From an uncultured Victivallales bacterium (GTDB lineage Bacteria > Verrucomicrobiota > Kiritimatiellia > UBA8416): 64,000 bases of DNA. Every line of letters starts with the position of its first letter. The first letter of the stretch is position 1. The DNA is taken from NCBI GenBank assembly GCA_964576795.1, contig CAZNWT010000002.1:65033-129032 (forward strand). Direction: 5' to 3'. Made by a program: the position numbers and the translations under genes. Below are positions 27,577 to 47,137 of the stretch, in pieces. A model generated the notes under the pieces. The model saw only the letters and a program-made list of their open reading frames with translations. It was not told the origin of the DNA and did not search any database.

Positions 27577-27784
27577 ATATCGTCCCCCGAATAAGTCAAC
27601 TAAACAGGAGTAGGTTGCCGGTTTTGGACGGTTAATGCAAGTAAGATCTTTTTGGTAGGCGAGGGTAGGCACACATCTCCGAGGTGTAGCCCTCTCATTC
27701 CTGCCTGTGGCCGGTGTAGGCCCACGGGGTCAGATATCAAAAATTTCCTAGAAAATTTTTGACGTCGGACCCCTGACTGGGTAA

Positions 27785-28840
27785 TCACCTCGTTAAATCG
27801 CCACATAATGCATAAAGTTGCGTGGCCATCACTTGATTATCTGCTACTTCTTGTCGGAGCTTTTTCAACTGTGCTGATACAGCTGCCGAAGTTCCGTACT
27901 CGAGCGTTTCGGCAACTTCTCTTTGGTTCATCCCTGCAAGTTTACAGAGCAAATAAGCGGCAATAGGTCTCGCAAATGAACCATATTGACGCCGCAGCAG
28001 TTCAGAGGGATTTAAATCAAAATGCTGTGCCACCGCATGAATAATGACTTCTGGAGAAATGTTTACCGATCGTCTTCTGAAATGATCTGCGGGAGAAGCC
28101 TCCCCGGGGTCAGATGTCAAAAATTTCGTACCCTCTGCCACGGGGTCAGACGTCAAAAATTTTCTAGAAAATTTTTGACATCTGACCCCGCTCTCTCCGC
28201 TCTCCCCTCCCTCTGATTTTAGAATTTCAATAAATTCGGTGTCTGTATTAGCAATACCCGCCTCAATAAACTTTCTGTATTGTTCTTCCCGATCATGGTT
28301 TTGCTCCATCATTGAAAGTATGGGTTGGTACTCTACAAAGTTCCAGCGCCAAACGGGATCAATGTATCCGCGAAAGGTGCTCCAGCCATATTGGCGCAGA
28401 TAGAGGATTTTTTCGTCAACGGTGCTGTCCTTATGTCGACTGGTGTGTATGGGATTGAGGTGTATATAGCGGCTGAGTTTGAGAAGGTATTGATTCCCTT
28501 TGACGAGAACGGAGTTATAGCGTCCTTGAAAAAGATGGCCGCACTCATTGTGTCGAAGGTTGAAATAAACGCTATAGCCGGTGAGAACGCTTTGCATAAA
28601 GCGGCTGATATTCGCCTTGGGAGTTTCTGCTAATAAGTGGAAATGATTATCCATGAGACAGATCAGATAGAGGCGGACATCATAAGAATCGCAACTCTCG
28701 GCCAGACGACGAAGTAGTCGTTCTCGATCGTGATTGTCGTTAAAAATATCACGCCGCCCGTTGCCGCGGGAGGTGATGTGGTATATGGCGCCCTCAAATT
28801 GCAATCTGCGCTTACGTGGCATAGAACACCTTTCGCACAA
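27785..28840 (-). CDS. HUH Y1 transposase (IS200/RAYT-like) fused to a DnaA domain-IV-like HTH; carries an in-frame P1 palindrome insertion in the linker
   Basis: HuH 'LMDNHFHLLAE', catalytic-Tyr motif 'SRYIHLNPI'. C-terminus 'FARPIAAYLLCKLAGMNQREVAETLEYGTSAAVSAQLKKL' resembles DnaA domain IV. Linker peptide 'GVRCQKFSRKFLTSDP' is translated from the palindrome. Confidence 0.75.
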   Translation of the reverse strand: MCERCSMPRKRRLQFEGAIYHITSRGNGRRDIFNDNHDRERLLRRLAESCDSYDVRLYLICLMDNHFHLLAETPKANISRFMQSVLTGYSVYFNLRHNECGHLFQGRYNSVLVKGNQYLLKLSRYIHLNPIHTSRHKDSTVDEKILYLRQYGWSTFRGYIDPVWRWNFVEYQPILSMMEQNHDREEQYRKFIEAGIANTDTEFIEILKSEGGESGESGVRCQKFSRKFLTSDPVAEGTKFLTSDPGEASPADHFRRRSVNISPEVIIHAVAQHFDLNPSELLRRQYGSFARPIAAYLLCKLAGMNQREVAETLEYGTSAAVSAQLKKLRQEVADNQVMATQLYALCGDLTR

Positions 28841-33826: not shown

Positions 33827-34160
33827 CCCTATGAATTAATGTGCACTTTAAGAAAATAATGCCACCAATTCAATATCTTTATAAAAAAGGAGGGGTAATG
33901 GAGTGAAGGCCATCTATTCCAGTTAAGATTTTGAACAAAGAGGAAGCAAAGGAATACAGAAAGCCTGCTATTCTAAAGATCAAGGAAGCTTGGGCTACTG
34001 CTGGAATTTGAACAGAAGGAAACGAAGAGAACGAAGAAGAAGACTCAACTCATGTTGCCGGATTGAAGTTGTTCTGTTGGACACATATGATACATTTAGA
34101 ATCACTGTAAAGAGATGCGTTTACAATGGGATCGAAGCTTTGTTTGATGGAGGCGATGTT

Positions 34161-35006
34161 ATGAGTAAAGAAGAGGCGTTGGCTGTTTTTGAGAAACATT
34201 CAATTCGTCGGTTCTATGACGAAACCGATGAAGCTTGGTATTTTTCTGTTGTGGATGTTGTTGGCGCACTTACGGACAGTGCCAACCCGCGGGATTACTG
34301 GTTTAAGATGAAAATCCGGGTTAAGAGTGAGGATGGATTTCAGTTGTCGACAATTTGTCGACAACTGAAACTAATCTCTTCCGATGGAAAGAAATACGCT
34401 ACTGATTGTGCAAATGTGGAGGGGGTGTTCCGAATTATTCAATCCATCCCATCGCCCAAGGCGGAACCCTTTAAGCAGTGGTTGGCCAAGGTGGGGTACG
34501 AGCGAGTTCAGGATATGAGTGATCCTGCGCGTTCACTCGACCGGGCCCGTGACTACTGGCAGCAGCATGGGCGCAGCGAAAAATGGATTCAGCAGCGTAT
34601 GATGGGGCAGGAGACCCGCAACAAACTGACCGATTATTGGAAAGGTCACGAAATCAAGGGAGAAGGTGAGTATGCCATTCTCACCAATATCATTCATCGG
34701 GAGTGGAGCGGGGTTTCGGTAAAGCATCATAAGGCTGCCAAAGGTCTCAAAACTCAGAATTTGAGAGACCACATGAGTGAGGCGGAACTGATTTTTACCG
34801 CATTGGCCGAACTGTCCACCCGACAGATCGCCGAGAGTGTCGAAGCAACGGGACTGCCGGAAAATTCCGAAGCAGGACGGAAGGGTGGCGGCATTGCGAA
34901 GAAGGCGCGCAGAGAACTTGAGCAGAAGACAGGTCGAAGTGTAGTGACCGGTGAGAACTTTTTACCGCCAGAGGCCGGAAAGAAAGAACGGAAGCCGGTC
35001 AAATGA
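34161..35006 (+). CDS. Bro-N domain protein (DinD/antirepressor-like)
   Basis: 'FEKHSIRRFYDETDEAWYFSVVDVVGALTDSANPRDYW' matches the Bro-N signature. Start set at MSKEE with a plausible RBS. Confidence 0.5.
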   Translation: MSKEEALAVFEKHSIRRFYDETDEAWYFSVVDVVGALTDSANPRDYWFKMKIRVKSEDGFQLSTICRQLKLISSDGKKYATDCANVEGVFRIIQSIPSPKAEPFKQWLAKVGYERVQDMSDPARSLDRARDYWQQHGRSEKWIQQRMMGQETRNKLTDYWKGHEIKGEGEYAILTNIIHREWSGVSVKHHKAAKGLKTQNLRDHMSEAELIFTALAELSTRQIAESVEATGLPENSEAGRKGGGIAKKARRELEQKTGRSVVTGENFLPPEAGKKERKPVK

Positions 35007-35340: not shown

Positions 35341-38217
35341 ATGAAGGGGGCGCGGTTGCGGTTAACAGATTACCATGCAAAGTATTATGCGAATGAGCTG
35401 ACCAAGCGTTGCTCTTCCGATAGTCTTGAGAAGCTTACGGCATCGCTGCTTGATGCCCGCGTCGACCTCAACCCCCACCAGATTGAAGCTGCTCTTTTTG
35501 CTTTTAAATCTCCGTTTTCGACTGGAGCAATCTTGGCTGACGAAGTTGGGCTGGGAAAGACGATCGAAGCGGGCATCGTCCTTTCTCAGAAGTGGGCGGA
35601 ACAGAAGCGCAAAATCCTGATCATTGTTCCATCCAGCTTGCGGAAGCAGTGGAATCAGGAGCTCGCAGAGAAGTTCTTTCTGCCTTCCTCAATTTTGGAA
35701 GCAAAACCATTTAACAAGTGCATTAAGGCAGGAGAGGCAAATCCTTTCACGCGGGACGAAATCGTGATCTGTTCTTACCATTTTGCCCGAAACAAAGCCG
35801 ACTATGTATCCCGTATCGGATGGGATCTCGTCATCTTTGACGAAGCACACCGTCTGCGGAATGTATATAAGCCGAACAACAAAATTGCCCGGACACTAAA
35901 GGAAGCTCTCAAGAATTCCCCGAAGCTCTTGCTTACCGCGACACCGCTACAAAACTCACTGTTGGAGCTCTACGGTCTGGTCAGTTTTGTCGATGAGTAT
36001 TGCTTCGGCGATCTCAAAAGTTTTCGGAGTCAGTACGCTCGCCTCGGGACACAGGACACGTTTGCTGAATTAAAGTCGAGGCTGCAGCCGATCTGCCAAC
36101 GCACCTTGCGGCGGCAGGTTCTTGAGTATGTCCGGTACACGAACCGTGTGCCTATTACGCAGGCCTTTATCCCAAGTAAGGAGGAACAGGTTCTGTATGA
36201 GCTGGTATCGGAGTACCTTCAGCGTTCTAATTTACAGGCTTTACCCCCTAGCCAACGCTCGCTGATGACTCTCGTTATGAGGAAACTCCTAGCCTCATCT
36301 ACTTTCGCTATCGCGGGAGCTCTGAGTTCATTGGTGCGGAAGCTGGAGGGGCGTCTACGGCACGCGCGCATCAAGGCTGAAGACGATGAATTGGGGATGG
36401 ACTTCGAGAAGTTGGATGAACTCAGAGATGAATGGGATCAGGGCGATGCAGATGAAGAACTCGAAACACTGTCGAAGGAGGATGCAGAAGCCATTTCCGC
36501 CGAGATTGAGGATCTGAAGCAGTTTCGCGATTTGGCTGAGTCCATTGCCCACAACGCCAAAGGCAAAGCCCTTGTCAAGGCACTCCGTACAGGAATGAAG
36601 AAGGCCGTTGAACTCGGGGCCGAAAAGAAGGCTATCATTTTCACTGAATCCCGACGCACTCAGGAGTATCTCGCCAATGTGCTAGCCGACACTGAATTCT
36701 CGGGGAAGGTTGTGCTGTTTAATGGATCAAACAACCTTCCTGACGCTAAGGATACATACCACAAGTGGCTTGAGAAGCATGCCGGCACAGATATGATCAC
36801 TGGATCGCGGACGGCAGATAAGAGGGCCGCGTTGGTCGACTCATTTCGCGAAGACTCCCAGATTATGATTGCGACAGAAGCTGCTGCCGAAGGCATCAAC
36901 CTCCAGTTCTGCTCTTTGGTTGTGAACTATGATCTGCCATGGAATCCCCAACGCATTGAGCAGCGCATCGGAAGATGCCATCGCTATGGACAGAAGCATG
37001 ACGTTGTTGTGGTCAATTTCTTGAACAAGAAGAATGCCGCCGATCAACGCGTCTTTCAGCTTCTGTCCGAGAAATTCATGCTCTTCAGCGGGGTGTTTGG
37101 CGCTAGTGATGAAGTGCTGGGAAGCATTGAATCCGGCGTCGACTTCGAGAAGCGTATTGTCGAGATCTACCAGACTTGCCGAACGCCTCAAGAGATAGAC
37201 GCTCTATTCGACAAGCTTCAGCAAGAGCTCTCTTCTGAAATTGACGAAACCATGGGGATTACACGGCAGAAGCTTCTTGAGAATTTTGACGAAGAGGTAC
37301 ACGAGAAGCTTCGAGTCAATCTACAGGCTAGCACCGAATACCTGAACCGCTACGAGAAACTCCTTTGGAGACTCACGGCTCACGCGCTTAATGATTGTGC
37401 CGAAATCAACGAGGCCGATTTGTCCTTTGTGCTTTCAGAAAATCCCTTTGCCGGAAAGGGCATCTCTACCGGGCGGTACCGCTTTGGACGGGAGGTGGCT
37501 GACGCGCATCACTATCGCTTAGGACATCCGCTGGCCCATTCTATCCTGGGGCACTACAAGCCGCTTACTCTGCCGGACGCCTCGCTTGATTTTGACTATT
37601 CAGGGACGCCCTCGAAAATCTCTGTACTGGATGACATGGCGGGAGAAACCGGATGGCTACGGCTGGACCGACTGACAATCGACTCATTTGAGACTGAAGA
37701 TCATCTCCTGTGGGCAGGAATCACGGATGCGGGGCACGTGCTCTCTGACGAACAATGCCGCCGACTCTTCAGCCTTCCGGCTGTCCAAGGAATCCTGGAT
37801 TACTCGAATACAAAGGACGAAAAGGTAATCAATCAGATCCTCCATGCCGGACAGCAGACCGTGATTCAAACCAACGCCGAACGCAATGCCGGCTTTTTTG
37901 ATGCTGAAATGGGAAAACTGGACCACTGGTCAGAGGACATGAAAACCAGTCTTGAGATTCGGCTCAAGCAGCTCGACATCGACATCAAGAGTATGAAGAC
38001 CGAAGCGCGCAAGATGATCAGCCTTGAGGAGAAGGTCGCCGCCCATCGCCATATCAAGGATCTGGAGAAACAGCGTAATGAAATGCGCCTCAACCTCTAT
38101 CAGGCTCAAGATGATGTTGAATCGAAGAAAGAAGCACTGATAGAAGAAATCGAAGCCCGTCTCAAACAACAAATATCGACGACAACACTATTTAGTATAA
38201 AGTGGAAATTAATATAA
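35341..38217 (+). CDS. SNF2-family helicase (SNF2_N + Helicase_C) with ~400-aa C-terminal extension ending in a coiled-coil, 958 aa
   Basis: Motif I 'ADEVGLGKTIEAG', motif II 'DLVIFDEAHRLRN', Helicase_C 'ATEAAAEGINLQ…QRIGRCHRYGQ'. Confidence 0.85.
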   Translation: MKGARLRLTDYHAKYYANELTKRCSSDSLEKLTASLLDARVDLNPHQIEAALFAFKSPFSTGAILADEVGLGKTIEAGIVLSQKWAEQKRKILIIVPSSLRKQWNQELAEKFFLPSSILEAKPFNKCIKAGEANPFTRDEIVICSYHFARNKADYVSRIGWDLVIFDEAHRLRNVYKPNNKIARTLKEALKNSPKLLLTATPLQNSLLELYGLVSFVDEYCFGDLKSFRSQYARLGTQDTFAELKSRLQPICQRTLRRQVLEYVRYTNRVPITQAFIPSKEEQVLYELVSEYLQRSNLQALPPSQRSLMTLVMRKLLASSTFAIAGALSSLVRKLEGRLRHARIKAEDDELGMDFEKLDELRDEWDQGDADEELETLSKEDAEAISAEIEDLKQFRDLAESIAHNAKGKALVKALRTGMKKAVELGAEKKAIIFTESRRTQEYLANVLADTEFSGKVVLFNGSNNLPDAKDTYHKWLEKHAGTDMITGSRTADKRAALVDSFREDSQIMIATEAAAEGINLQFCSLVVNYDLPWNPQRIEQRIGRCHRYGQKHDVVVVNFLNKKNAADQRVFQLLSEKFMLFSGVFGASDEVLGSIESGVDFEKRIVEIYQTCRTPQEIDALFDKLQQELSSEIDETMGITRQKLLENFDEEVHEKLRVNLQASTEYLNRYEKLLWRLTAHALNDCAEINEADLSFVLSENPFAGKGISTGRYRFGREVADAHHYRLGHPLAHSILGHYKPLTLPDASLDFDYSGTPSKISVLDDMAGETGWLRLDRLTIDSFETEDHLLWAGITDAGHVLSDEQCRRLFSLPAVQGILDYSNTKDEKVINQILHAGQQTVIQTNAERNAGFFDAEMGKLDHWSEDMKTSLEIRLKQLDIDIKSMKTEARKMISLEEKVAAHRHIKDLEKQRNEMRLNLYQAQDDVESKKEALIEEIEARLKQQISTTTLFSIKWKLI

Positions 38218-38233
38218 AGCTCACGGACGAGGG

Positions 38234-38305
38234 GGGGGCTGGCCTTCGGGGAAGGCCGCCCTACTGGCTGAGAGCCGTAGCCCCCACTTCCCCGAAGCGC
38301 AGGGC
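38234..38305. repeat. REP doublet (type A GGGCTGGCCTTCGGGGAAGGCCGCCCTAC + type B GTAGCCCCCRCTTCCCCGAAGCGCAGGGC). Further clusters at 39938-40044, 40663-40720, 40778-40988 (C+A+tandem 16-mers+B), 42728-42830 (C+A+B) and 44393-44455 (C+A, inside a CDS 3' end)
   Basis: Each unit is a GC-rich hairpin with GTAG/CTAC termini, with A and B in inverted orientation (REPIN-like). Type C is GTAGCCCCGCCTTCMCCGAAGGCGAGGG. Confidence 0.85.
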
Positions 38306-38402
38306 CGAGGAACGCTAGGATGATGGCAGCGAAAATGAATTTCAGAGTGATCCTTAAATTTACCTTGAAGGTAAATCAAGATGAATGCTATAAAGGTGTT
38401 CG

Positions 38403-38714
38403 ATGAAGTATGAGTTAGCGGGGAAGCACCTCAAAGACCTCTACACAAAGGGCGCCAGCAAAAAATTCAAGTTCATGGACAAGAAGCTCTGCTCAAAGTT
38501 CGTAGAACGCGTTGGGCGGATTGAAGCCGCAGAGAACATTTACGACCTAAGGAATCCACCATCAATGGAGTTTGAGTCTTTGGAGGGCTACCCCAACCGG
38601 TTTTCTATCCGTTTAGACAAAAAGCATCGTCTTGAGTTCGATATCGAATTTGAAGACGAAAAGAAGACGTTTGGTTCCGTAACCGTGATTACGGTAAGCA
38701 AGCACTACGAGTGA
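38403..38714 (+). CDS. higB: HigB-like toxin (RelE/ParE superfamily, 'plasmid maintenance system killer')
   Basis: 103 aa, 'LRNPPSMEFESLEGYPNRFSIRLDKKHRLEFDIEFED'. Lies upstream of the HTH partner, i.e. the hig gene order. Confidence 0.6.
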   Translation: MKYELAGKHLKDLYTKGASKKFKFMDKKLCSKFVERVGRIEAAENIYDLRNPPSMEFESLEGYPNRFSIRLDKKHRLEFDIEFEDEKKTFGSVTVITVSKHYE

Positions 38715-39823
38715 GGCATGTGATGGGTAAACTAAAGCCATTTGTGAATTTGGGTCCGGGCGATACGATTCGAGAAGAGTTGGCGTATTTAAGCTGGGAG
38801 CAGAAGGACTTGGCGGAAATCATGGGGCGAACAGAGAAGAATGTTAGCCAATTGATCACGAACAAGGCCCCCGTGACGTATGAGACAGCTAGCCAGCTTT
38901 CGAAGGTCTTCAAGCAATCCGTGCAGTTTTGGCTCAATCTCGATGCCAATTACCGGCAACGACTCGAAGAAAGTGCAAAGGTTGTGGATACAGAAGCAAA
39001 AGCGCTCATCTACCGCTACATGCCAGTGCGCGAATTACGCAAGTATATCGACCTCCCACGAAGAACCGATGATCTTATTGCAGCAGTCAAAAGTTTCTGG
39101 GACATAGATGAACTGAATTTTGCGTTCTTGGAAACACAAGCGCAGGTCTGTTTCCGTAAATCCGAAGCCTACCGCAATTTCAATCCCTACTATGCCCTCA
39201 CGTGGCTTCAGCTTGCACGCAACTCTCTCACTGGGCATCGCCCTAAAGCGACCTACGCCCCAGATCGCTTGATGGCACTTGCTGAGAAAATTTGTGATTA
39301 TACGATACAGTCTAATGGCATTCATGCATTCATAAAGCAGCTGAACCGTTGTGGCGTTGTCTTTCTGCATCTTGATCATTTTCAGCAGACTTACGTGGAT
39401 GGTGCCTCATTCTTTGATAATGGCAAACCGGTCATTATTTACACTGCCCGTTATAACCGAAACGACAACTTTTGGTTCACAATGGCTCACGAACTTGGGC
39501 ACGTTCTGCTGCATGCCGACGATCAAGAGTCATTCTTTATCGACTCACTGGATCACCTTGATCTTTCTAATAAACGAGAAAAGGAAGCTGACGCTTTTGC
39601 TGAGAAAAGGCTTCGTTCTTCTGAGATTTTGGAGTCATTTCACGGCGTTAAGCGGCCAACGGTTGTTCGGATAAAGAGTGTAGCTCAGAAACTTGGACTC
39701 CATCCTGCGGTAATTGCCGGAAGCCTGCAGCATCACGGCCAAGCATCCTGGAGCAGTTTCCATGAGCTGAAGGAGGGTGTGAAAGCTGATCTTCCTCGTG
39801 CGAAGATCGAAAGGGCGAAATGA
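38711..39823 (+). CDS. HigA-like XRE HTH antitoxin fused to an ImmA/IrrE-family Zn-metallopeptidase domain
   Basis: HTH 'IREELAYLSWEQKDLAEIMGRTEKNVSQLI', HEXXH motif 'FTMAHELGHVLLH'. Start overlaps the HigB stop. Confidence 0.75.
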   Translation: MRHVMGKLKPFVNLGPGDTIREELAYLSWEQKDLAEIMGRTEKNVSQLITNKAPVTYETASQLSKVFKQSVQFWLNLDANYRQRLEESAKVVDTEAKALIYRYMPVRELRKYIDLPRRTDDLIAAVKSFWDIDELNFAFLETQAQVCFRKSEAYRNFNPYYALTWLQLARNSLTGHRPKATYAPDRLMALAEKICDYTIQSNGIHAFIKQLNRCGVVFLHLDHFQQTYVDGASFFDNGKPVIIYTARYNRNDNFWFTMAHELGHVLLHADDQESFFIDSLDHLDLSNKREKEADAFAEKRLRSSEILESFHGVKRPTVVRIKSVAQKLGLHPAVIAGSLQHHGQASWSSFHELKEGVKADLPRAKIERAK

Positions 39824-40181
39824 ACATGCGCAAGATTAATGGGTTTCATTTTGCTCTTCCGTTGTGGAGATCAATATGAGTAAACCCACAATAATCTGCC
39901 CCAAGTGCACGTCTCGAGGTGGAGCTTGCAGGAGGGTGGGGCTGGCCTTCGGGGAAGGCCGCCCTACGTGGGGACGAGCGATGCAGGGATGATGACGAAA
40001 GGTTAGTGGCGTTGAGTAGCCCCCGCTTCCCCGAAGCGCAGGGCCGCACAAGGCAAGGACTACAGCAGGACAAAACAACATGACACGACATCCGGACACA
40101 GTCAGTTTTTAGCGGGGCGTCCTTCCGCATTGGGAGGTCGTCGACGGCTGCTATTTCGTAACAGTTCGGCTGGCAAACAGT

Positions 40182-40661
40182 TTGCCGCGACACGTTACGG
40201 AAGAACTGGCTGCTGTGTTGTCGGATGTGACGGAAAAGGATTATCTGAAGAAGTCGCGGGCGTATTTCAAGCAGATGGAGCAGTGGCTCGACAAGAACAC
40301 GGGGGATACGTGGTTACAGCAAGAGGCTGTGGCATCCATTGTGCAAGACACGATTGAGAAGTATACGAATCTGGGCTATTGGCATATGTTTGCAGCCGTG
40401 ACCATGCCGAATCATGTCCACCTGTTCTTTCGTTGTGGCGATCGGTCGCTTGGGCGTGTCATGCGTAGTTTCAAGCGCTATACTGGGCGAGCTGGAAACG
40501 CGGTGCTGGGGCGACACGGCAAACGCTTTTGGCAGCGGGAATGGTTTGATCATTGGTCGCGCAGCACAGATGAAGATGACAAGATTGTGTCGTATATCAG
40601 GAACAACCCCATGCGTGCAGGATTGATAAAGGATGGCGAAACATGGCCATGGTTGATGTAA
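40182..40661 (+). CDS. REP-associated tyrosine transposase (RAYT, IS200-like Y1 HUH), 159 aa
   Basis: HuH 'MPNHVHLFF', Tyr motif 'VSYIRNNPMRAGL'. Flanked on both sides by GTAG-REP doublets. Confidence 0.8.
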   Translation: MPRHVTEELAAVLSDVTEKDYLKKSRAYFKQMEQWLDKNTGDTWLQQEAVASIVQDTIEKYTNLGYWHMFAAVTMPNHVHLFFRCGDRSLGRVMRSFKRYTGRAGNAVLGRHGKRFWQREWFDHWSRSTDEDDKIVSYIRNNPMRAGLIKDGETWPWLM

Positions 40662-40838
40662 TGGGGCTGGCCTTCGGGGAAGGCCGCCCTACGTAGCCCC
40701 CGCTTCCCCGAAGCGCAGGGCAGAACCGGGCAAGGATTACAGCAAAGAAAATGGCGAATGATTGGCGGGGGTGAATTGAGTAGCCCCGCCTTCACCGAAG
40801 GCGAGGGTTGGGCTGGCCTTCGGGGAAGGCCGCCCTAC

Positions 40839-40918
40839 TTGGGGCCGCGCGATATTGGGGCCGCGCGATATAGGGGCCGCGTGATGCAAGGGCCGCGTGA
40901 TGCGAGATGTTCGTGATG
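40839..40918. repeat. Five degenerate 16-nt tandem repeats (TTGGGGCCGCGCGATA…) inside a REPIN spacer
   Basis: Read from the sequence. The homologous spacer at 39968-40015 has a single unit. Confidence 0.8.
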
Positions 40919-41014
40919 CAGGGATGATGGTGAACGATCAGTGGCGTTGAGTAGCCCCCGCTTCCCCGAAGCGTAGGGCAAAAGCACTGGGCAAAACAAC
41001 GCAAGGAATTTGGT

Positions 41015-42706
41015 ATGCCTAAGAAAAAACAGAAACTTGAACTGACATGGATTGGGAAGGATGAGCAGCCGCAGCTTGAGCCACGGATTCTTATTGAAGA
41101 TCCGAGTAAGTCATATGGCGATTCGAATGCCGAGAATATGCTAATCCATGGGGACAATCTGCTTGCTCTCAAGGCACTGGAACAGGAGTTTACTGGGAAA
41201 GTTCAATGTATCTATGTTGATCCACCATTCAACACCGGCCAAGCGTTTCAGCACTACGAAGATGGAGTTGCTCATTCGTTGTGGCTGACTCTTATGGAGT
41301 CTCGGATTGAGTTTCTCTTCAGATTGTTGAGCCCAACGGGAACGCTGTGGGTACATTTGGACGACAATGAGGTCCACTATATGAAAGTTCTTATGGATCA
41401 GACTCTTGGACGAAGTCGGTTCATATCATCAATTGTGTGGCGAGCGGCCGACTCCTCGAATAATGATGCGAAGCAGTTTTCCTTGGACCACAACACTATT
41501 CTTGTCTATGCCAAAAGCTCCGACTGGGAGTCATTTCTTCTTCCTCGGCAAGACAAGGACAATCTGCACTACAGTAATCCAGATGACGACCCTCGGGGAC
41601 CGTGGTTTCAGGGTAACCTATCTTCTCCAAACCCCCGAGAAAATCTGCGCTTTGATGTCTCTTCCCCGCAAGGCTATGTGATTCATCCGCCGAGTAATGG
41701 ATGGCGCTGGAGCAGAGAGCGTATGAATTCTATGATCAGCACAGGGGAGATCGCTTTCTCTAGCGACGGAACGAGGGTAATGAAGAAGACGTACCTCGCG
41801 AACCAAAAGGGCCTTTCGCCCTCATCGCTCTGGAGTGACATTGAAGACACCGGGCACAACCGACAGGCAAAGTATGAGCTGAAAAAGCTTTTTCCCGACA
41901 CTCCGACGGCAGAGCTTTTCAAGACCCCTAAGCCGGAACGTCTGATTTACAAAATCCTTCAGATAGCCACGAAAGAGGGGGATATCGTGTTGGACTCATT
42001 CCTTGGTTCTGGAACTACTGCGGCGGTCGCACATAAGTTGGGGCGTAGATGGATAGGCGCCGAACTGGGAAATGCCTACAGCGAGGCCTGCATTCCCCGG
42101 CTCAGAAAGGTTTGCGACGGAACCGACCAAGGGGGAGTATCTAAATTGATTGAGTGGGTTGGCGGCGGCGGATTCAAGTGCTACGAACTTGCTCCCAGCC
42201 TCTTGAAGTCTGATACACACGGCAACTGGGTAATCAGCGATGAGTACAATGCCGACATGTTGGCCGCCGCGATGGCGAAGCATGAGGCGTTCAACTACAG
42301 CCCGGATGCGGAGATCTACTGGAAGCAGGGTAAATCATCCGATAAGGATTTTATTTTCACCACGACGTCATTTGTACAGGTGGCATTTCTTGATCGGTTG
42401 CACGAGGAAATGCAAGAGGATGAGCACCTGCTGATTTGCTGCAAGAAGTTTTCTGCGCCCTGTGCGCGACGCTATTCCAACATTGAGATCAGGAAGATCC
42501 CGAAGATGCTACTGGGTAAGTGCGAGTTCGGGCGTGATGACTATAGCCTTAACATCGTGAATGTTCCCACAGAGGAGGATGCGCCCGCTTTTGTGCCGCA
42601 AGGCCCTCCCGCTGCGCCAACTGCAAAACCGAAGCCAAAACGCAAGAAGGGCGGACGTCCCGGCCTGAGTCAGCCGGATTTGTTTGGTGAAGGAACGGCA
42701 GAATGA
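41015..42706 (+). CDS. mod: Type III restriction-modification Mod subunit (beta-class N6-adenine methyltransferase)
   Basis: Motif IV 'IYVDPPFNTG' precedes motif I 'VLDSFLGSGTTAAVA', the beta-class order. 563 aa. Confidence 0.85.
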   Translation: MPKKKQKLELTWIGKDEQPQLEPRILIEDPSKSYGDSNAENMLIHGDNLLALKALEQEFTGKVQCIYVDPPFNTGQAFQHYEDGVAHSLWLTLMESRIEFLFRLLSPTGTLWVHLDDNEVHYMKVLMDQTLGRSRFISSIVWRAADSSNNDAKQFSLDHNTILVYAKSSDWESFLLPRQDKDNLHYSNPDDDPRGPWFQGNLSSPNPRENLRFDVSSPQGYVIHPPSNGWRWSRERMNSMISTGEIAFSSDGTRVMKKTYLANQKGLSPSSLWSDIEDTGHNRQAKYELKKLFPDTPTAELFKTPKPERLIYKILQIATKEGDIVLDSFLGSGTTAAVAHKLGRRWIGAELGNAYSEACIPRLRKVCDGTDQGGVSKLIEWVGGGGFKCYELAPSLLKSDTHGNWVISDEYNADMLAAAMAKHEAFNYSPDAEIYWKQGKSSDKDFIFTTTSFVQVAFLDRLHEEMQEDEHLLICCKKFSAPCARRYSNIEIRKIPKMLLGKCEFGRDDYSLNIVNVPTEEDAPAFVPQGPPAAPTAKPKPKRKKGGRPGLSQPDLFGEGTAE

Positions 42707-42866
42707 GTATGCAGCGTTACGAATTGAGTAGCCCCGCCTTCCCCGAAGGCGAGGGCCGGGAGCTGGCCTTCGGGGAAGGCCGCTCTACTGCACCGCGCGA
42801 CGTAGCCCCCGCTTCCCCGAAGCGCAGGGCCGCACAGCGCAGGGATTGTGGTGGGGGGAATGGCAG

Positions 42867-44480
42867 ATGAAAACGAACAAACGTCAACTGCTGAAGGTGA
42901 GTCTGCCCTTTGGAAGCACGGAAGGCATAGCGCTGGAGTTCAAGGAAGCCAGAAATGCGTTGCCGAAGAATCTTTTCGATACGGTCTGCGCTTTTCTGAA
43001 TATGGATGGTGGGTTGATTGTTCTGGGAGTGGCCGATGATGGTGCCATCACGGGGGTGGAGCCCGGGGCTGTAGACGCGATCAAGACTGAGCTTGCGAAT
43101 CTTTCCAATAATCCCCAGAAGCTGTCACCGCCTTATTTGCTCTTTCCTCATGTTGAGGTGCACGACGGGAAACGCGTAATCACAGTGCAAGTTCCGGCCA
43201 GCTCGCAGGTTCACCAGACTGGCGGGCATACCTATCTGCGTAGTGAGGATGGTGACTATCGTATCAAGGGGCTAAACCAGATCGCGGGGCTGATGAATCG
43301 GAAGTTGAGTCTATTCAGTGAGCAGCGCGTGCTGCCATATTTGGGCATGGATGATCTGGATCCAGCGTTGTTTGAAAAGGCACGAATCCTGATGAAGGCG
43401 CACCTGCCGCAGCACCCGTGGGCTGCCCTACCGCCCGAGGATTTATTGAAAGTGGCGGGCTTTGTCCGGAAGGATTTTGAGACGGGAAAGCCGGGGTATA
43501 CACTTGCCGCCGCGCTAATGTTCGGCACGGACGCCACCATTCAGAGCGCGGCACCCGGATACAAGTTCGATGCGCTGCTACGGCGGCATGATCAGGAACG
43601 TTTTGATGATCGGTTGACGGTGCGAACCAACCTGATTGATGCTTTCGATCTGCTGATGGGATTCGTGGACAAGCACCTGAATGATCCTTTCTATCAGGAG
43701 GGGACGACCAGTATCAGCCTGCGCGCCGTCATCTTCCGTGAGCTTGTGGCAAACATCATCGCCCATCGGGATTATGTAAGTGTGGCTCCGGCGACGTTCT
43801 GTATCTATCCAGACCGGGTGGAGCTGAAGAATCCGAACATCCCGCACTATCATGGCAGAATAGATCCGGATGCCTTCACGCCTTTCCCCAAGAATCCGAC
43901 CATCTGCAAGTTCATGATCCAGATTGGGCGCTATGAGGAGCTAGGCTCCGGCGTGCGGCGCGTGAACAAGTATCTACCATACTATGCCCCCGGTGCGGGA
44001 AAACCCGTATTCGAAGATGGCGATATGTTTACAGTAACTGTGCCGGTAGTGGACACCCTGAAAAAGAAACGGCTAGAGTCGGCACCAGTCGGGGCACCAG
44101 TCGAGGCACCAGTTGGGGCACCAGTCGAGGCACCAGTCGCAGGGCAAGTCACAGGGCAAGTCACAGGGCAAGTCACAGGGCAAGTACAGAGGATACTTGC
44201 GATCTGCGAGGGGGAGATGACACGAAAAGAGCTGCAACTCGCCATCGGACTGAAGGGGCGTGACAACTTTGAGGTCAACTATCTCAAGCCTGCACTGGTC
44301 GCAGATTTGCTAGAAATGACCATCCCCGACAAGCCGAAGAGTCGCTTGCAGAAGTACCGGATCACGGACAAAGGGCGTGAGTTGCAAGAACAAGTAGCCC
44401 CGCCTTCACCGAAGGCGAGGGCCGGGGGGCTGGCCTTCGGGGAAGGCCGCCCTACTCAAGAGCTGGAGGAAACCTCATGA
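42867..44480 (+). CDS. AlbA_2/Schlafen-like (divergent AAA, PF04326-type) + HATPase_c_4-like + C-terminal wHTH protein. Contains in-frame 12-nt tandem repeats and a REP-derived C-terminal tail
   Basis: 'EGIALEFKEARNALPKNLFDTVCAFLNMDGGLIVLGV', 'IAHRDYVS…PDRVELKNPN', 'IGRYEELGSGVRRV'. Repeat peptide 'APVGAPVEAPVGAPVEAPVAGQVTGQVTGQVTGQV'. Last 25 aa are encoded by REP C+A. Confidence 0.6.
   Translation: MKTNKRQLLKVSLPFGSTEGIALEFKEARNALPKNLFDTVCAFLNMDGGLIVLGVADDGAITGVEPGAVDAIKTELANLSNNPQKLSPPYLLFPHVEVHDGKRVITVQVPASSQVHQTGGHTYLRSEDGDYRIKGLNQIAGLMNRKLSLFSEQRVLPYLGMDDLDPALFEKARILMKAHLPQHPWAALPPEDLLKVAGFVRKDFETGKPGYTLAAALMFGTDATIQSAAPGYKFDALLRRHDQERFDDRLTVRTNLIDAFDLLMGFVDKHLNDPFYQEGTTSISLRAVIFRELVANIIAHRDYVSVAPATFCIYPDRVELKNPNIPHYHGRIDPDAFTPFPKNPTICKFMIQIGRYEELGSGVRRVNKYLPYYAPGAGKPVFEDGDMFTVTVPVVDTLKKKRLESAPVGAPVEAPVGAPVEAPVAGQVTGQVTGQVTGQVQRILAICEGEMTRKELQLAIGLKGRDNFEVNYLKPALVADLLEMTIPDKPKSRLQKYRITDKGRELQEQVAPPSPKARAGGLAFGEGRPTQELEETS
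44081..44190. repeat. In-frame 12-nt tandem repeats (gcaccagtcgrg x5 then gggcaagtcaca x4) within the CDS
   Basis: Read from the sequence. Confidence 0.9.
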
Positions 44481-47137
44481 ACCATACCGCAAACTATGTG
44501 CGCAACCGCCTAAGCCTTCGCCCTCCGCAGACGGAGAGCTTGGAGATCCTGGCGTCATTGGCCGAAAAGCTATCGCTATCCAAAAGCCCTGACCTGGCAT
44601 CCGAGCTGGAACTCGTGAAAGCCGGGTTCTCAACCTGCACCGATTTTGAGCGTGATTTTCCGTCGCTCTGCTTTGCGCTGGCCACGGGTGTCGGCAAGAC
44701 GCGGCTGATGGGAGCTTTTGTTGCGTATCTCTACCTGGAAAAGGGCATTCGTAACTTTTTCATCATGTCACCCAACCTCACGGTCTACAATAAGTTGATC
44801 GAGGATTTTTCAGATCCATCCAGTCCCAAGTATGTCTTTCCGGGCATCGGGGATCTGTCCCAGAATCCGCCTCGGATTATTACGGGCGACAATTATGAAT
44901 ACGCGGCTCAGGGGGATTTGCTGACGGATGTGAACATTAATTTCTTCAATATTTCGAAGATTAATGCAGAGACCAGAAGTGGAGGCGTGCCCCGCATCAA
45001 GCGCATGGCCGAATATCTCGGTGAGAGCTATTTCAACTACCTTTCGAATTTGGATGACCTTGTCCTGCTGATGGACGAGTCCCACCATTATCGGGCGGCC
45101 CGCGGAATGGCCGTTATCAACGAGCTCAGGCCTATCTTGGGCCTAGAGTTAACAGCCACTCCCCAGGTCGAAAACGGGGGTAAGAAGATCCCTTTCAAGA
45201 ATGTGGTCTACGAGTATTCTCTCAGCAAGGCCATTCAGGACGGTTTCGTAAAGACCCCGGCTGTCGCCACGCGAAAGGATTTTGATCCTTCGCAGCATAG
45301 TGATGAGGAGCTTGATCGCATTAAACTTGAAGACGGTATCCGCATTCATGAGGACACTCGTGTGGCCCTCGAACTCTATGCACGCGACAACAAAATATGC
45401 CGGGTGAAACCGTTCATTCTGGTTGTCGCAAAGGACACCCGGCATGCGGGCCAGCTCAAGGCTATGATTGAGTCTGACAAATTCTTCGAAGGGCAGTATG
45501 CAGATAAGGTAATGGAGATCCACTCGAACCAACGTGGTTCAGAGAAGGATGAGAATATCGAGAAGCTATTGGCCTTGGAGGCTGTGGACAACAATATTGA
45601 AATTGTCATTCATGTGAACATGCTCAAGGAGGGGTGGGACGTCAACAACCTCTATACGATTATTCCGCTCCGTACCGCTGCATCGACAACCCTCCGCGAA
45701 CAGACTATAGGTCGCGGCCTCCGGCTCCCCTATGGCGTCATCACAGGTGATCCCAAGGTCGACAAGCTCACCATTGTGTCGCATGACCGATTCCAGGAAA
45801 TTGTGGACGAGGCCAACAAACCGAATTCAATCATTCATCTTGAGAATGTGATCGAAATCGACGAGGAGTTAACGACTCCGAAGGAGACTGTCAGCACGGT
45901 ATCCTCCATGGACACATTTTTCGATCCGGAGCAGAAGCAGGTCGAAGCTATTGAGAACAAGGCTGAAAGACAGAGAGCCCAGCTAACGCTCGACACGAAG
46001 AAGGAAATCGTCACTGCGCTGCATAGCCTCAATGCGGAGGTGAAGTCGGTGCATGAGCTAACACGACCGGAAGTGAAAAAGCTAACGGTGGAGCGTATTA
46101 AGCAGAAGTTTGCGGGGGATCTCTTTGTCGACGACCGGGTCAAGGAAGCGGAATCCCATTACGATGCCATAGCCAAGGAGTTCACAAAGCGGATCATTGA
46201 GATCCCGAGAATCATCATTCAGCAGTCCGATAACGTGCGGTCGGGATTTCATGAGTTCAAACTGGACGTCCTGGGGCTGGATCTGAAGCCAGTGTCGGAA
46301 GAGATTGTCAGGCAATCCCTCACTGATAACACCATGGAATCCATTTATGGTAAGGGACGTATTATTCCGGAGAATCTCGACAACCTAATCGTCAATGAAC
46401 TTATAAACGCCCCCGAGATTGACTACGACGAATGTTCGGATCTGCTGTTCTCGCTAGCAAATGACGCGCTGACTAAGTTGCGGTCGTCTCTAAACGAGGA
46501 TGACCTCATCAATGTCGTACAGTACCATCGGCGAGATATCGCGGCCTTCATCTATAAACAGATGATGGCTCCCTCGCATTTCTACTGTGATACACCTGCG
46601 TACGAGGAGGCGATTGTCCATCCGTTTACCCAGATTGAGGCGCACAACTTCTCGATGTTCTCTGCTGACACAATCCACGACTACACCGAAACCATTACGC
46701 CGACGCGATTGATCCCCTCCAAAGTGTTTGCTGGTTTCAAGAAGGCCTGCCACGACAAATACAAATTCGACTCCAAAACCGAGAAAGACTTCGCGGCCAT
46801 CATAGAGAAGGACGAGGATGTGTTGAAGTGGCTGAGACCAGCGAAGAAACAGTTTCAGATCTACTGGAAGCACAACTCCCGCCAGTACATCCCCGACTTC
46901 GTTGTCGAAACCGCCGACACCATCTACATGGTCGAGACGAAAAAAGAGGGCGACATCGAAACCGGCGAGGTGCAGGAGAAGGCGACTGCCGCCGTTGAAT
47001 ACTGCAAGCATGCCTCCAATTTCACCACCAAGAACAACGGCAAGCCCTGGCAATACGTCATCATCCCCCACAACGCCGTGTTTGCGAATATGGGGTTAAG
47101 CACACTCGCCACAAAGTTCGCACACCCCACAGACTAA
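44477..47137 (+). CDS. res: Type III restriction enzyme Res subunit (SF2 helicase + C-terminal PD-(D/E)xK)
   Basis: Walker A 'LATGVGKTRLM', motif II 'LLMDESHHY', C-terminal 'YIPDFVVETADTIYMVETKKEGD'. Start overlaps the stop of the upstream gene. Confidence 0.85.
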   Translation: MNHTANYVRNRLSLRPPQTESLEILASLAEKLSLSKSPDLASELELVKAGFSTCTDFERDFPSLCFALATGVGKTRLMGAFVAYLYLEKGIRNFFIMSPNLTVYNKLIEDFSDPSSPKYVFPGIGDLSQNPPRIITGDNYEYAAQGDLLTDVNINFFNISKINAETRSGGVPRIKRMAEYLGESYFNYLSNLDDLVLLMDESHHYRAARGMAVINELRPILGLELTATPQVENGGKKIPFKNVVYEYSLSKAIQDGFVKTPAVATRKDFDPSQHSDEELDRIKLEDGIRIHEDTRVALELYARDNKICRVKPFILVVAKDTRHAGQLKAMIESDKFFEGQYADKVMEIHSNQRGSEKDENIEKLLALEAVDNNIEIVIHVNMLKEGWDVNNLYTIIPLRTAASTTLREQTIGRGLRLPYGVITGDPKVDKLTIVSHDRFQEIVDEANKPNSIIHLENVIEIDEELTTPKETVSTVSSMDTFFDPEQKQVEAIENKAERQRAQLTLDTKKEIVTALHSLNAEVKSVHELTRPEVKKLTVERIKQKFAGDLFVDDRVKEAESHYDAIAKEFTKRIIEIPRIIIQQSDNVRSGFHEFKLDVLGLDLKPVSEEIVRQSLTDNTMESIYGKGRIIPENLDNLIVNELINAPEIDYDECSDLLFSLANDALTKLRSSLNEDDLINVVQYHRRDIAAFIYKQMMAPSHFYCDTPAYEEAIVHPFTQIEAHNFSMFSADTIHDYTETITPTRLIPSKVFAGFKKACHDKYKFDSKTEKDFAAIIEKDEDVLKWLRPAKKQFQIYWKHNSRQYIPDFVVETADTIYMVETKKEGDIETGEVQEKATAAVEYCKHASNFTTKNNGKPWQYVIIPHNAVFANMGLSTLATKFAHPTD

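Follow-up and report, generated by a model that had tools for sequence, protein, structure and literature searches.

The region from 33.9 to 47.1 kb of the 64-kb window (the whole stretch of DNA analysed) forms a defence island around a restriction-modification (RM)-like core of three genes, encoding an SNF2 helicase, a type III-like methyltransferase (Mod) and a Res protein. Lodged between mod and res is a passenger gene of the Schlatpase-HTH type. Its product, probably a second-line RNase, is composed of an AlbA_2/Schlafen (SLFN) RNase domain in which the ExxxxExK motif is intact, a GHKL ATPase and a tethered winged helix. The Nqr/Rnf housekeeping genes stop at 33.8 kb, ahead of the island, whose features are given in Table 1.

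Table 1. Features of the defence island (positions in the window; mod, Schlafen gene and res from ORF analysis)
Feature	Position	Strand	Evidence and remarks
Bro-N domain protein	33990-35006	+	Pfam Bro-N 2.5e-10; opens the island
SNF2-family helicase (DrmD/BrxHII/RapA-like)	35341-38217	+	third conserved partner of the Mod-Res family
Span with 14 REP units, two variants	38243-44470	.	nine of variant 1, five of variant 2
REP blocks at gene junctions	38243-38299, 39932-40048, 40657-40983, 42721-42834, 44387-44470
HigB-like toxin	38403-38714	+	Pfam HigB-like_toxin 5e-8; passenger in SNF2/mod junction
HigA/Xre-M78 protein	38711-39823	+	Pfam Peptidase_M78 and HTH_3; passenger in SNF2/mod junction
REP-associated tyrosine transposase (RAYT)	40182-40661	+	NCBIfam REP_Tyr_transpos 5.7e-20, Pfam Y1_Tnp 7e-8
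mod, type III-like N6-adenine methyltransferase	41015-42706	+	563 aa, beta-class motif order
Schlafen (SLFN/AlbA_2) + GHKL ATPase + winged-helix gene (Schlatpase-HTH)	42867-44480	+	Pfam, AF2
Schlafen RNase catalytic motif E-x4-E-x-K (EGIALEFK)	42921-42944	+	invariant residues
GHKL (HATPase_c_4) ATP-binding domain	43803-44039	+	Pfam, invariant columns, fold
12-nt tandem array 1	44082-44141	+	five units GCACCAGTCGRG, encoding APVG APVE APVG APVE APVA
12-nt tandem array 2	44142-44189	+	four units GGGCAAGTCACA, encoding GQVT GQVT GQVT GQVQ
Fic-like_C winged helix-turn-helix domain	44181-44366	+	Pfam 5.2e-24
REP doublet (REPIN) in 3' end of Schlafen ORF	44387-44470	+	repeat families D1, D2; pattern match 44402
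Ribosome-binding site of res (GGAGGAA)	44466-44472
ATGA overlap of Schlafen gene with res	44477-44480
res, SF2 helicase with C-terminal PD-(D/E)xK nuclease	44477-47137	+	886 aa

The identities of Mod and Res, named from their motifs in the first-pass annotation, were borne out. The mod translation contains motif IV (VDPPFNTG) followed by motif I (FLGSGTT), and matches Pfam N6_N4_Mtase (3.6e-47) and PADLOC MTase_III (9.7e-179). Res carries the motifs MDESHH and PDF..VETK and matches PADLOC REase_III (2.8e-178), Pfam ResIII (6e-19) and Helicase_C, together with a weak match to RE_endonuc. The SNF2 helicase matches Pfam SNF2-rel_dom (4.9e-37) and PADLOC DrmD (4.3e-209), and scores 700 bits against NCBIfam DISARM_DrmD_b, under the cut-off of 950 bits. 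A same-strand SNF2 homologue is present upstream of mod in 40 of the 44 related loci selected by Mod (immediately adjoining in 11), and the core is therefore SNF2-Mod-Res, not the plain two-gene type III RM system that had been supposed. With canonical type III systems (EcoP15I/EcoP1I, Mod2Res1-2) it shares a beta-class Mod, a Res composed of an SF2 helicase and a C-terminal PD-(D/E)xK nuclease, and the placement of mod ahead of res on one strand; it differs from them in the third conserved gene, in the passengers that often part mod from res, and in the weak match of Res to NCBIfam PRK15483 of the EcoP15I type (33.8 bits against a cut-off of 564).

The junctions of the SNF2-Mod-Res core genes are insertion hot spots that collect passenger defence genes. 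The view that mod and res are normally adjacent is correct for about two-thirds of this RM family, whereas in 21 of 64 relatives some gene stands between them, the inserts counted being RhuM (eight), YhcG (three), AAA_15/21 (two), and PDDEXK_3, Fic, Schlatpase and DUF3800 (one each). The SNF2/mod gaps contain OLD-like ATPases, AIPR, SIR2-HerA, Abi_2, GmrSD and Schlatpases. In the window, this gap is occupied by the HigB/HigA-like pair (38403-39823), matching PADLOC PD-Lambda-2_B (9.8e-44), and L081 and one further locus have M78-HTH genes at this junction. In another related locus, L012, a further Bro-N gene is placed between SNF2 and the Schlafen gene.

The gene interposed between mod and res, already recognised as such (hereafter the Schlafen gene), starts either with the tabulated ATG, preceded by a G-rich ribosome-binding site (537 aa), or with a TTG at 42846 (544 aa). 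The sequence collection searched contained no copy of the exact protein, and 1359 homologues were found at E<1e-10. The earlier domain calls (AlbA_2/Schlafen, HATPase_c_4 and wHTH) all hold, by Pfam and by fold. The N-terminal part matches SLFN_AlbA_2 (3e-16), and HATPase_c_4, at 25.5 bits marginally under the 26-bit Pfam cut-off, is also backed by Pfam hits precomputed for homologues; the two domains together constitute the "Schlatpase" module. In a 33-sequence alignment (A1), residues E20, E25 and K27 show no variation, and the N-box (E293..N297) and GSG (361-363) of the GHKL domain are invariant across the family. PMC13056530 defines Ex4(E/D)xK as the catalytic motif of prokaryotic Schlafens. 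The AF2 model (pLDDT 84, above 90 in the winged helix) has fold matches to 3lmm over its full length, to SLFN5/11/13/14, to the SAMD9 tRNase, to PDK/histidine-kinase CA domains and to the winged helix of 4rgl (2e-13 by sequence; fold rmsd 1.3 A over 68 aligned columns).

The REP doublets bracketing the Schlafen gene spread from the nearby RAYT transposase. All 14 REP copies of the window lie within 38.2-44.5 kb, where chance would predict none, and stand on both sides of the RAYT gene; each unit has a GTAG that never varies and then a GC-rich hairpin (fold z about -3). The 160-nt spacer from mod to the Schlafen gene is made of such hairpins, and a scan for promoters and terminators at the locus gave results at chance level. 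As in known REP/RAYT (REPIN) systems, a RAYT-family Y1 transposase is flanked by short palindromes with a 5' GTAG, and the units form doublets in intergenic spacers; unlike in those systems, the copies of the window are confined to the defence island and one doublet has joined the coding region of the Schlafen gene, at its 3' end. The protein's non-homologous tail VAPPSPKARAGGLAFGEGRPTQELEETS (pLDDT < 50) comes from this doublet; homologues stop 0-25 aa past KGRELL, with unrelated tails. The doublet took the place of the native stop codon of the gene, and because the reading frame runs through it, the gene now overlaps res. The ATGA overlap, described at first as coupling to res, is thus real but secondary, a product of the read-through.

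The 5 + 4 in-frame 12-nt units first noticed in the linker were read again in frame, and TRF detected period 12 twice, at 44081-44139 (4.9 copies, 89% matches; 94% matches at period 24) and at 44135-44189 (4.7 copies, 95% matches). The residues of array 1 have pLDDT < 50. Array 2, whose unit agrees with the family-wide consensus SAAGTCACCSCN, passes straight into helix 1 of the winged helix. According to the AF2 model, the nine-tetrapeptide tract is predicted to be a disordered tether of the winged helix, which is consistent with the spacer role proposed for it.

The repeats had appeared to be a peculiarity of this locus, but a tract precedes the winged helix throughout the family and in other architectures too, three in all, and the winged-helix module also occurs on Fic and DUF4062 enzymes. 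In each of the 65 full-length homologues the 3' third of the gene contains a tandem array, whose period is 12, 24 or 36 in 58 of them; periods of 3, 5 or 6 at the protein level were found in none of the 65. Such arrays are not a product of chance, since in 80 related loci period-12n arrays reach 4.4 per kb in the homologous linker vs 0.087 per kb elsewhere. Unit sequence and copy number vary widely from lineage to lineage, and synonymous positions of the units are kept across phyla, with A ahead of GTC in 49 of 51 and GTG used 0 times. Repeat number changes without frameshift, as anticipated: L001 and L017 share 98.5% identity across 1608 nt, with a sole indel of 24 nt (two units), proteins 97-99.8% identical exhibit indels of 4, 8 or 12 aa, and all observed variants are full length and differ by multiples of 4 aa. 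This variation comes from relatives, not from the source organism of the window. Between some alleles the first 380 aa are 93-97% identical and the last 80 aa 37-60% identical; tether and winged helix form one family-wide module, swapped whole between alleles sharing a Schlatpase core.

This type of gene and its presence in RM clusters have already been described. It corresponds to pSlfn-HisKinase-HTH, which comprises 19.2% of prokaryotic Schlafens and shares with the present protein the order of the three domains, the ExxxxExK motif, PF04326 and PF13749, the C-terminal HTH and a location in defence islands (Taboada et al., Nat Microbiol 2026, PMC13056530; bioRxiv 10.64898/2026.05.29.728809). 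A published survey reported a tight association of Schlafen-ATPase-DNA-binding proteins with RM, BREX and type I CRISPR systems. The same architecture inside a methylation-based core operon is known from BREX and BREX-related loci of at least 1017 taxa, where a Schlafen RNase with a minimal histidine kinase as well as a wHTH was termed a "backup suicidal effector" (NAR 2026, PMC12839542), and from RM-associated Schlafen clusters (Nat Commun 2026, PMC13462974); unlike in these, the host here is SNF2 with a type III-like Mod and Res. The 2026 papers place the Schlatpase-HTH family inside RM/BREX operons as a likely back-up RNase, the role of the embedded Schlafens in PMC12839542 and PMC13462974 being a computational inference too. 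Schlatpase is a named supradomain, and published work on SLFN-pAgo describes ATP-driven tetramerisation and tRNA cleavage. The literature searched yielded no experiment on a Schlatpase-HTH protein from an RM operon and, in the portions covered, no description of a variable tetrapeptide/12-nt repeat tether; neither the tether nor a type III-like host operon is mentioned in the text of PMC13056530 reached by term search or in the available part of bioRxiv 10.64898/2026.05.29.728809.

The Schlafen gene had been taken for a partner particular to this locus, but it belongs to a very large family found also in the order hsdM-X-hsdS in type I operons (HsdM in 15 of 69 upstream and HsdS in 11 of 66 downstream neighbours) and in the order SNF2-X-mod-res. 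L110 carries a distant, tract-less Schlatpase paralogue between mod and res, which entered this slot independently. The closest relatives stand between SNF2 and mod, an order present in L001 and L017, with overlapping stops and starts, and in L012 and L064. Schlatpase genes occur in just a few of the Mod-selected loci, and on a Legionella plasmid a family member stands alone, beside an integrase. Since its slots differ between operons, the family may act autonomously.

The gene could accordingly be a self-contained defence or selfish element with no functional tie to SNF2-Mod-Res, positioned between mod and res solely because RM junctions tolerate insertions and supply transcription. The unrelated genes in the mod/res slot of relatives, the several operon types and positions of the family, its solitary member next to an integrase, published SLFN-pAgo relatives without a conserved partner, and the REP doublets standing as direct repeats on either side all agree with this. 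We nevertheless consider it unlikely, as immediate neighbours are strongly enriched for same-strand RM components, often with overlapping stops and starts, tight RM linkage recurs in published surveys, and two unrelated Schlatpase lineages arrived in this one RM family. Far less probable is the older COG2865 reading, by which some sources name homologues "putative transcriptional regulator" and the protein, like a C-protein, would bind DNA through its winged helix and time the expression of mod and res. Its C-terminal winged helix and position within the operon fit such a role, but a repressor would have no need of a Schlafen catalytic triad and ATP-binding GHKL residues that are invariant, Fic and DUF4062 enzymes carry the same winged-helix module, the relatives are nucleases, and two-thirds of the related RM systems manage without a mod/res insert, and few of the Mod-selected loci carry a Schlatpase.

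Tandem repeats of two kinds are familiar from RM genes. In HsdS of EcoR124I/EcoR124II, TAEL tetrapeptide (12-bp) repeats contribute to a helical coiled-coil spacer between the two target-recognition domains; their copy number shifts by unequal crossing-over or slippage, altering molecular spacing, and they alter the RM enzyme's own DNA specificity. The Schlafen tract resembles them in having an in-frame 12-nt unit for 4 aa, in a protein encoded at an RM locus, but is disordered by prediction and belongs to an accessory nuclease. The repeats of phasevarions lie in mod, are built of units of 1-5 nt and switch expression through frameshifts. A type III-like locus where a coding region contains a hypermutable tandem repeat, its copy number shifting in relatives, recalls this arrangement, yet here the repeat lies in the passenger gene, TRF detected no tandem repeat inside mod, and the variants remain full length. 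Since gain or loss of 12 nt cannot turn the gene off, phase-variable mod genes offer a weak analogy, and it is extremely improbable that the repeats serve as a switch for the accessory gene or for res. Far easier to entertain, although still doubtful, is that the arrays are by-products of replication slippage, neutral for function, in a low-complexity linker, their number drifting and only a minimum length mattering; this is compatible with the predicted disorder, the wide lineage differences in unit sequence and number, and distant paralogues such as L110 without a tract. Against it, the arrays are universal among full-length homologues with the periods given above, their synonymous sites are conserved across phyla, and three architectures pair the tract with the winged helix, all of which suggests that it is maintained, not just tolerated.

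A latent tRNA-directed RNase between RM genes has a precedent in the anticodon nuclease PrrC, whose gene belongs to the type Ic RM operon of EcoprrI. PrrC, which resembles ABC ATPases and has an anticodon nuclease domain, binds EcoprrI and is released by the T4 Stp peptide. The Schlafen protein is unrelated to PrrC in fold, but shares the position of an RNase gene between RM genes and fits the model of a second-line suicide effector guarding RM. From published work on relatives we infer its RNase activity, its trigger and a possible dependence on Mod or Res. ATP binding would cause the protein to oligomerise via the GHKL domain, and the oligomer would then serve as a second line of defence, an RNase of the abortive-infection type and most likely a tRNase. 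Either a phage cue or a failing RM system would set it off, much as with PrrC, embedded in the type I system EcoprrI. Through its winged helices the complex may attach to DNA or to a partner, with the length of the tether setting their reach.

The coordinates of the mod, middle and res genes reported in the first-pass annotation hold, and so do the assignments of the two core proteins. The translated Mod has the beta-class motif order, with motif IV (VDPPFNTG) about 260 aa N-terminal of motif I (FLGSGTT), and matches N6_N4_Mtase (3.6e-47) and PADLOC MTase_III (9.7e-179). Res carries an SF2 (DEAH-type) helicase motif (MDESHH) followed by a C-terminal PD-(D/E)xK nuclease motif (PDF...VETK); it matches ResIII (6e-19), Helicase_C, PADLOC REase_III (2.8e-178) and, weakly, RE_endonuc, while its score against the EcoP15I-type NCBIfam model is far under the cut-off. 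The island containing these genes is bordered by housekeeping Nqr/Rnf genes on one side and NUDIX/HlyIII/S49 genes on the other. No compositional anomaly was detected in it (GC 0.48-0.56 throughout), no known RNA or tRNA was found within it, and a promoter and terminator scan performed no better than chance and was uninformative.

Coordinates of the island, its genes and its repeats, with two genes lying outside it (positions in the window)
Feature	Position	Strand	Remarks
DUF4143/AAA_14 ATPase gene	26415-27599		outside the island
Second Y1 (IS200-like) transposase	27785-28840	minus	fused to a DnaA_C-type HTH; outside the island
Island	~33.9-47.15 kb
SNF2 helicase	35341-38217
REP units	38243-44470		14 units, two variants
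HigB-like toxin and HigA/Xre-M78 protein	38403-39823		4-nt overlap; M78 protein 370 aa, PADLOC PD-Lambda-2_B 9.8e-44
RAYT (REP-associated tyrosine transposase)	40182-40661
16-nt tandem repeat GGGGCCGCGCGATATW	40828-40901		~3.8 copies; inside the REP cluster between RAYT and mod
mod	41015-42706
REP doublet	42721-42834		in the mod|Schlafen spacer
Middle (Schlafen) gene	42867-44480	plus	ATG start; alternative TTG start at 42846
In-frame 12-nt arrays	44082-44189		TRF, period 12: 44081-44139 and 44135-44189
REP doublet	44387-44470		3' end of the Schlafen ORF
res	44477-47137

The description of the locus as a plain two-gene type III restriction-modification (RM) system is not borne out. In the window, mod is not directly followed by res, the two being kept apart by a 1.77-kb insert, and a further component recurs in related loci. 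Two sets of relatives were used, one from genomes and chosen by the middle gene (L001-L080), the other from metagenomes and chosen by Mod alone (L081-L160). A homologue of the window's SNF2 helicase was found upstream of mod, on the same strand, in 40 of the 44 Mod-selected loci with enough upstream sequence, and SNF2 directly adjoins mod in 11 Mod-selected loci. The core is therefore SNF2-Mod-Res, and in view of the conserved SNF2 gene and the mod/res insert the host system can be called no more than a type III-like variant with three components; no named system composed of SNF2, a type III-like Mod and Res was found in the literature searched. The helicase is DrmD/BrxHII/RapA-like and scores 700 bits against the 950-bit cut-off of the DrmD_b model. 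DISARM (class 1) was rejected because of this sub-threshold score and because the ORFs scanned, both within the island and in its surroundings, included no DrmA, DrmB or DrmC.

The statement that mod and res are normally adjacent is true of 43 of the 64 loci in which both genes were seen, but in the other 21 one or two genes lie between them. The mod|res inserts of the Mod-selected loci encode RhuM (8 cases), YhcG/DUF1016 (3), AAA_15/21 (2) and, in one case each, PDDEXK_3, Fic, DUF3800 and a Schlafen-ATPase ("Schlatpase") protein. The SNF2|mod gap of these loci contains genes for OLD-like ATPases, AIPR, SIR2-HerA, S8+AAA, Abi_2, ThsA_Macro, GmrSD and M78-HTH proteins, and two Schlatpases. Both junctions of the SNF2-Mod-Res family are slots in which passenger defence genes are accommodated. 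In the window, the SNF2|mod gap is occupied by the HigB/HigA-M78 pair and the RAYT transposase. M78-HTH genes similar to the HigA/Xre-M78 gene of the window fill the same junction in the Mod-selected locus L081.

The start codon of the middle gene is more plausibly the ATG, which is preceded by a G-rich ribosome-binding site, and the resulting protein has 537 aa. Of the domains first proposed for it, two were confirmed in Pfam, SLFN/AlbA_2 (PF04326) with 60.4 bits (cut-off 25.3) and the C-terminal HTH domain Fic-like_C with 84.4 bits; HATPase_c_4 (PF13749) scores 25.5 bits, just short of its cut-off of 26. On balance, a GHKL ATPase domain is present after the SLFN domain, since most homologues carry a precomputed PF13749 match, the N-box (E293..N297) and the GSG loop are invariant in an alignment of 33 homologues, and the fold matches kinase CA domains. 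In the same alignment, residues E20, E25 and K27 of the Schlafen motif E-x4-E-x-K (EGIALEFK) are invariant; the catalytic motif is defined as E-x4-(E/D)-x-K in PMC13056530. The domain architecture is shown, with both the catalytic and the ATP-binding residues intact. In the AlphaFold2 model (pLDDT 84) the SLFN, middle and GHKL domains and the winged helix (residues 439-511) are confident, the repeat tract (412-436) has a pLDDT below 50, and the tail (514-538) is disordered. Fold searches returned (i) for the full chain, 3lmm, a structural-genomics protein of the same architecture, (ii) for the N-domain, SLFN5/11/13/14 and the SAMD9 tRNase, (iii) for the ATPase, PDK and the CA domains of histidine kinases, and (iv) for the C-terminus, the winged helix of the Fic protein 4rgl (rmsd 1.3 A).

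Among the candidates scored, 1359 homologues of the middle protein were found at E<1e-10. The gene belongs to a described family and sits in a described kind of context. Its architecture is almost certainly that of pSlfn-HisKinase-HTH, which accounts for 19.2% of prokaryotic Schlafens (PMC13056530), and of the "Schlatpase" plus HTH described in bioRxiv 10.64898/2026.05.29.728809. Published surveys tie this architecture tightly to RM, BREX and type I CRISPR loci and read the linkage as that of a back-up abortive effector (PMC13462974, PMC12839542). Among the 80 loci L001-L080, a type I HsdM gene lies immediately upstream of the Schlafen gene in 15 of 69 cases and an SNF2 helicase gene in 7-8 of 69, while HsdS follows downstream in 11 of 66. 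The association with RM components is family-wide, and in the window the gene lies on the same strand within the operon. Mod and Res of the window type both occur in L001, L012, L017 and L064, while in L003 and at the edge of L026 Mod alone is seen before the contig ends. The order in the former four loci is SNF2 - Schlafen gene - (small genes) - mod - (PDDEXK_3 or RhuM) - res, with overlapping stops and starts in the SNF2-Schlafen-mod-res operon of L001 and L017; the window therefore contains the same parts in another order. The mod-Schlatpase-res order of the window was found in one other locus, L110 (547-6444). The Schlatpase of L110 retains ExxxxExK, is only 24% identical to that of the window, has a different C-terminus and lacks tetrapeptide repeats, and is therefore an independent capture. 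SNF2-Mod-Res junctions have captured two independent Schlafen lineages.

The overlap of the middle gene with res (ATGA), noted in the first-pass annotation, is present, but its reading as a sign of partnership does not stand. Homologues stop 0-25 aa past KGRELL and have unrelated tails, whereas the window ORF continues for 28 extra codons through a REP doublet, absent from all homologues, to a TGA overlapping the ATG of res. This doublet now codes for the C-terminal end of the Schlafen protein, a tail that is predicted to be disordered. Because the ORF reads through the doublet, the overlap is a by-product of REP insertion, not an ancient coupling. Translational coupling as evidence of partnership was accordingly rejected, the tail being REP-derived and res having its own ribosome-binding site (GGAGGAA). 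In every REP unit a GC-rich hairpin follows an invariant GTAG. The units are confined to 38.2-44.5 kb, grouped around the RAYT gene and at every island junction. The RAYT protein, a Y1 transposase with GTAG-palindrome units on either side of its gene, matches NCBIfam REP_Tyr_transpos (E 5.7e-20, 71.7 bits, slightly below the 80-bit cut-off). The two REP doublets are direct repeats flanking the Schlafen gene, so that recombination between them might conceivably remove it.

The two in-frame 12-nt arrays ahead of the winged helix were confirmed with TRF and read APVG APVE APVG APVE APVA, then GQVT GQVT GQVT GQVQ. In nearly all of the best 120 homologues, tetrapeptide units (for example TPQV, TPEV, GEQV, APVE and GPES) make up the linker that joins the ATPase to the winged helix. 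With a strict score, a period-4 run was found in 67 of these 120 proteins and runs of period 3, 5 or 6 in none; after shuffling no run appeared. In nucleotide sequence, each of the 65 full-length genomic homologues carries a tandem array in the linker. The period is 12, 24 or 36 in 58 genes, a good many arrays are 100% perfect, and the linker is about 50-fold richer in period-12n arrays than other parts of the loci. The number of units varies. Over 1608 nt, the Schlafen genes of L001 and L017 share 98.5% identity, and the one indel between them is 24 nt long, equal to two units. In four 90%-identity clusters the tract length differs by exactly 4, 8 or 12 aa (1-3 units) between proteins of 97-99.8% identity or, for one cluster, proteins at equal distance from the representative. 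Copy number thus differs between near-identical alleles, and the array is an in-frame VNTR whose repeat number is not invariant. This holds for relatives, the exact window protein being absent from the collection. No paper on the repeat tract of the Schlafen-winged-helix family was found in the literature searched, and the repeats are the part of the finding that goes beyond it.

The tract and the winged helix form a module that occurs on other proteins and is exchanged between alleles. Just upstream of the SNF2 gene of L001 (997-2535), it follows a different N-terminal part in a DUF4062-HATPase_c_4-(GVHD)n-Fic-like_C protein, and the solved Fic protein 4rgl has a GDQV-TDQV tract ahead of its Fic-like_C domain. 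Several homologues (proteins P0023, P0027, P0028, P0030, P0042, P0050 and P0053; loci L035-L037, L042 and L054) have two or three tandem winged helices, each preceded by its own tetrapeptide tract. In mosaic alleles (clusters of P0090, P0079, P0034 and P0007), the first 380 aa are 93-97% identical and the final 80 aa 37-60%. Identity falls at the start of the linker, right past ..TIPL, so that the exchanged unit comprises both the repeat tract and the winged helix. Proteins of this family combine a variable tether, predicted to be disordered, with an exchangeable winged helix. A role of the repeats as recombination breakpoint is weakened, since the array moves with the winged helix and the joint lies at the linker start. 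A query with the repeat-plus-winged-helix part returned short ORFs only (L162-L167; P0245 and P0203), limited to repeat tract and winged helix, some of them starting within the end of the ATPase domain; one is kept beside sarcosine-oxidase genes in three samples and another adjoins IS91 fragments. The idea of silent cassettes, spare modules kept next to full-length genes, is not supported: the two ORFs checked, P0245 and P0203, are orphan 3' remnants in housekeeping or IS91 contexts.

The repeat units are also conserved across phyla at synonymous sites. One unit per locus from 51 loci gave the consensus SAAGTCACCSCN. The Val codon follows an A in 49 of the 51 loci; it is GTC in 40 of 51 and GTG in none. 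Gln is encoded by CAA in 86% of cases in the repeats versus 32% in the rest of the same genes, and Pro by CCA in 51% versus 10%. Candidate explanations are that the Shine-Dalgarno-like GAGGTG is avoided in a reiterated tract, or that the motif has a function of its own as DNA or RNA. The conservation at synonymous sites, the near-perfect DNA identity within arrays with gain and loss of units among near-identical alleles, and the travelling of the array with winged helices swapped between otherwise identical Schlafen-ATPase cores suggested a further reading, in which the array would be a maintained diversification device of the module and not a passive linker. We regard it as doubtful; in its stronger form, the repeated DNA or RNA motif itself would be a binding or recombination site.

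That neutral slippage alone explains the repeats is rather unlikely, because the tract is universal in the family and its synonymous sites are conserved; this account covers the repeats only and is compatible with the best explanation of the gene, and our gradings are not meant to sum to certainty. Phase-variable repeats in type III mod genes were brought up in the first-pass annotation, but a contingency switch is excluded here by the 12-nt unit: the variants, 4, 8 or 12 aa apart, all remain full length, and mod has no repeat. We therefore regard such a switch as wholly improbable.

tRNA or RNA cleavage and phage defence have been demonstrated for other Schlafen architectures (pSlfn5, SLFN-pAgo and Cash), and PrrC in EcoprrI is the classical precedent for an RM-linked second-line effector. 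By analogy, the middle protein may back up SNF2-Mod-Res as a second-line defence that responds to a phage product, DNA ends or loss of restriction; once activated it would cleave tRNA and arrest growth. Its winged helices would hold the complex on DNA or on a partner, within a reach set by tether length. We give this effector model an even chance, and consider the combination of gene identity and effector model, the best explanation overall, moderately probable. An autonomous hitch-hiker, that is, a Schlafen gene without a functional tie to SNF2-Mod-Res, would account for the many different slots and for stand-alone copies such as the family member beside an integrase on a Legionella plasmid, and is unlikely in our judgement. 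A transcriptional regulator is very unlikely, as the enzymatic residues are conserved and most related RM systems have no such gene.

Schlafen-ATPase-HTH genes are among the commonest uncharacterised genes within RM and BREX operons, and recent papers propose that they encode back-up RNases. To this, the present locus and its relatives add (i) an SNF2-Mod-Res family whose junctions are docking slots for passengers, (ii) a putative DNA-binding end that is a separable module exchanged between alleles, and (iii) a hypervariable in-frame repeat, unexpectedly conserved in nucleotide sequence, on which this module hangs. The family-wide VNTR, the module exchange and the nucleotide conservation of the unit deserve follow-up. 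On the doubtful reading of the array as a diversification device, if tether length and module identity jointly set the DNA or partner that can be reached, the targeting end of RM-embedded Schlafens would evolve rapidly, in functional analogy to type I HsdS with its TAEL repeats and TRD swapping. The 12-bp TAEL repeats are alike in unit size and in-frame variability; however, they are helical and belong to HsdS, whereas the tether of the window is predicted to be disordered and lies in an accessory nuclease. Should neither tether length nor module identity control activation or target choice, the locus would be an ordinary defence island with an embedded Schlafen gene; if one of them does, this would explain the diversification of these effectors and provide an easy experimental handle on them.
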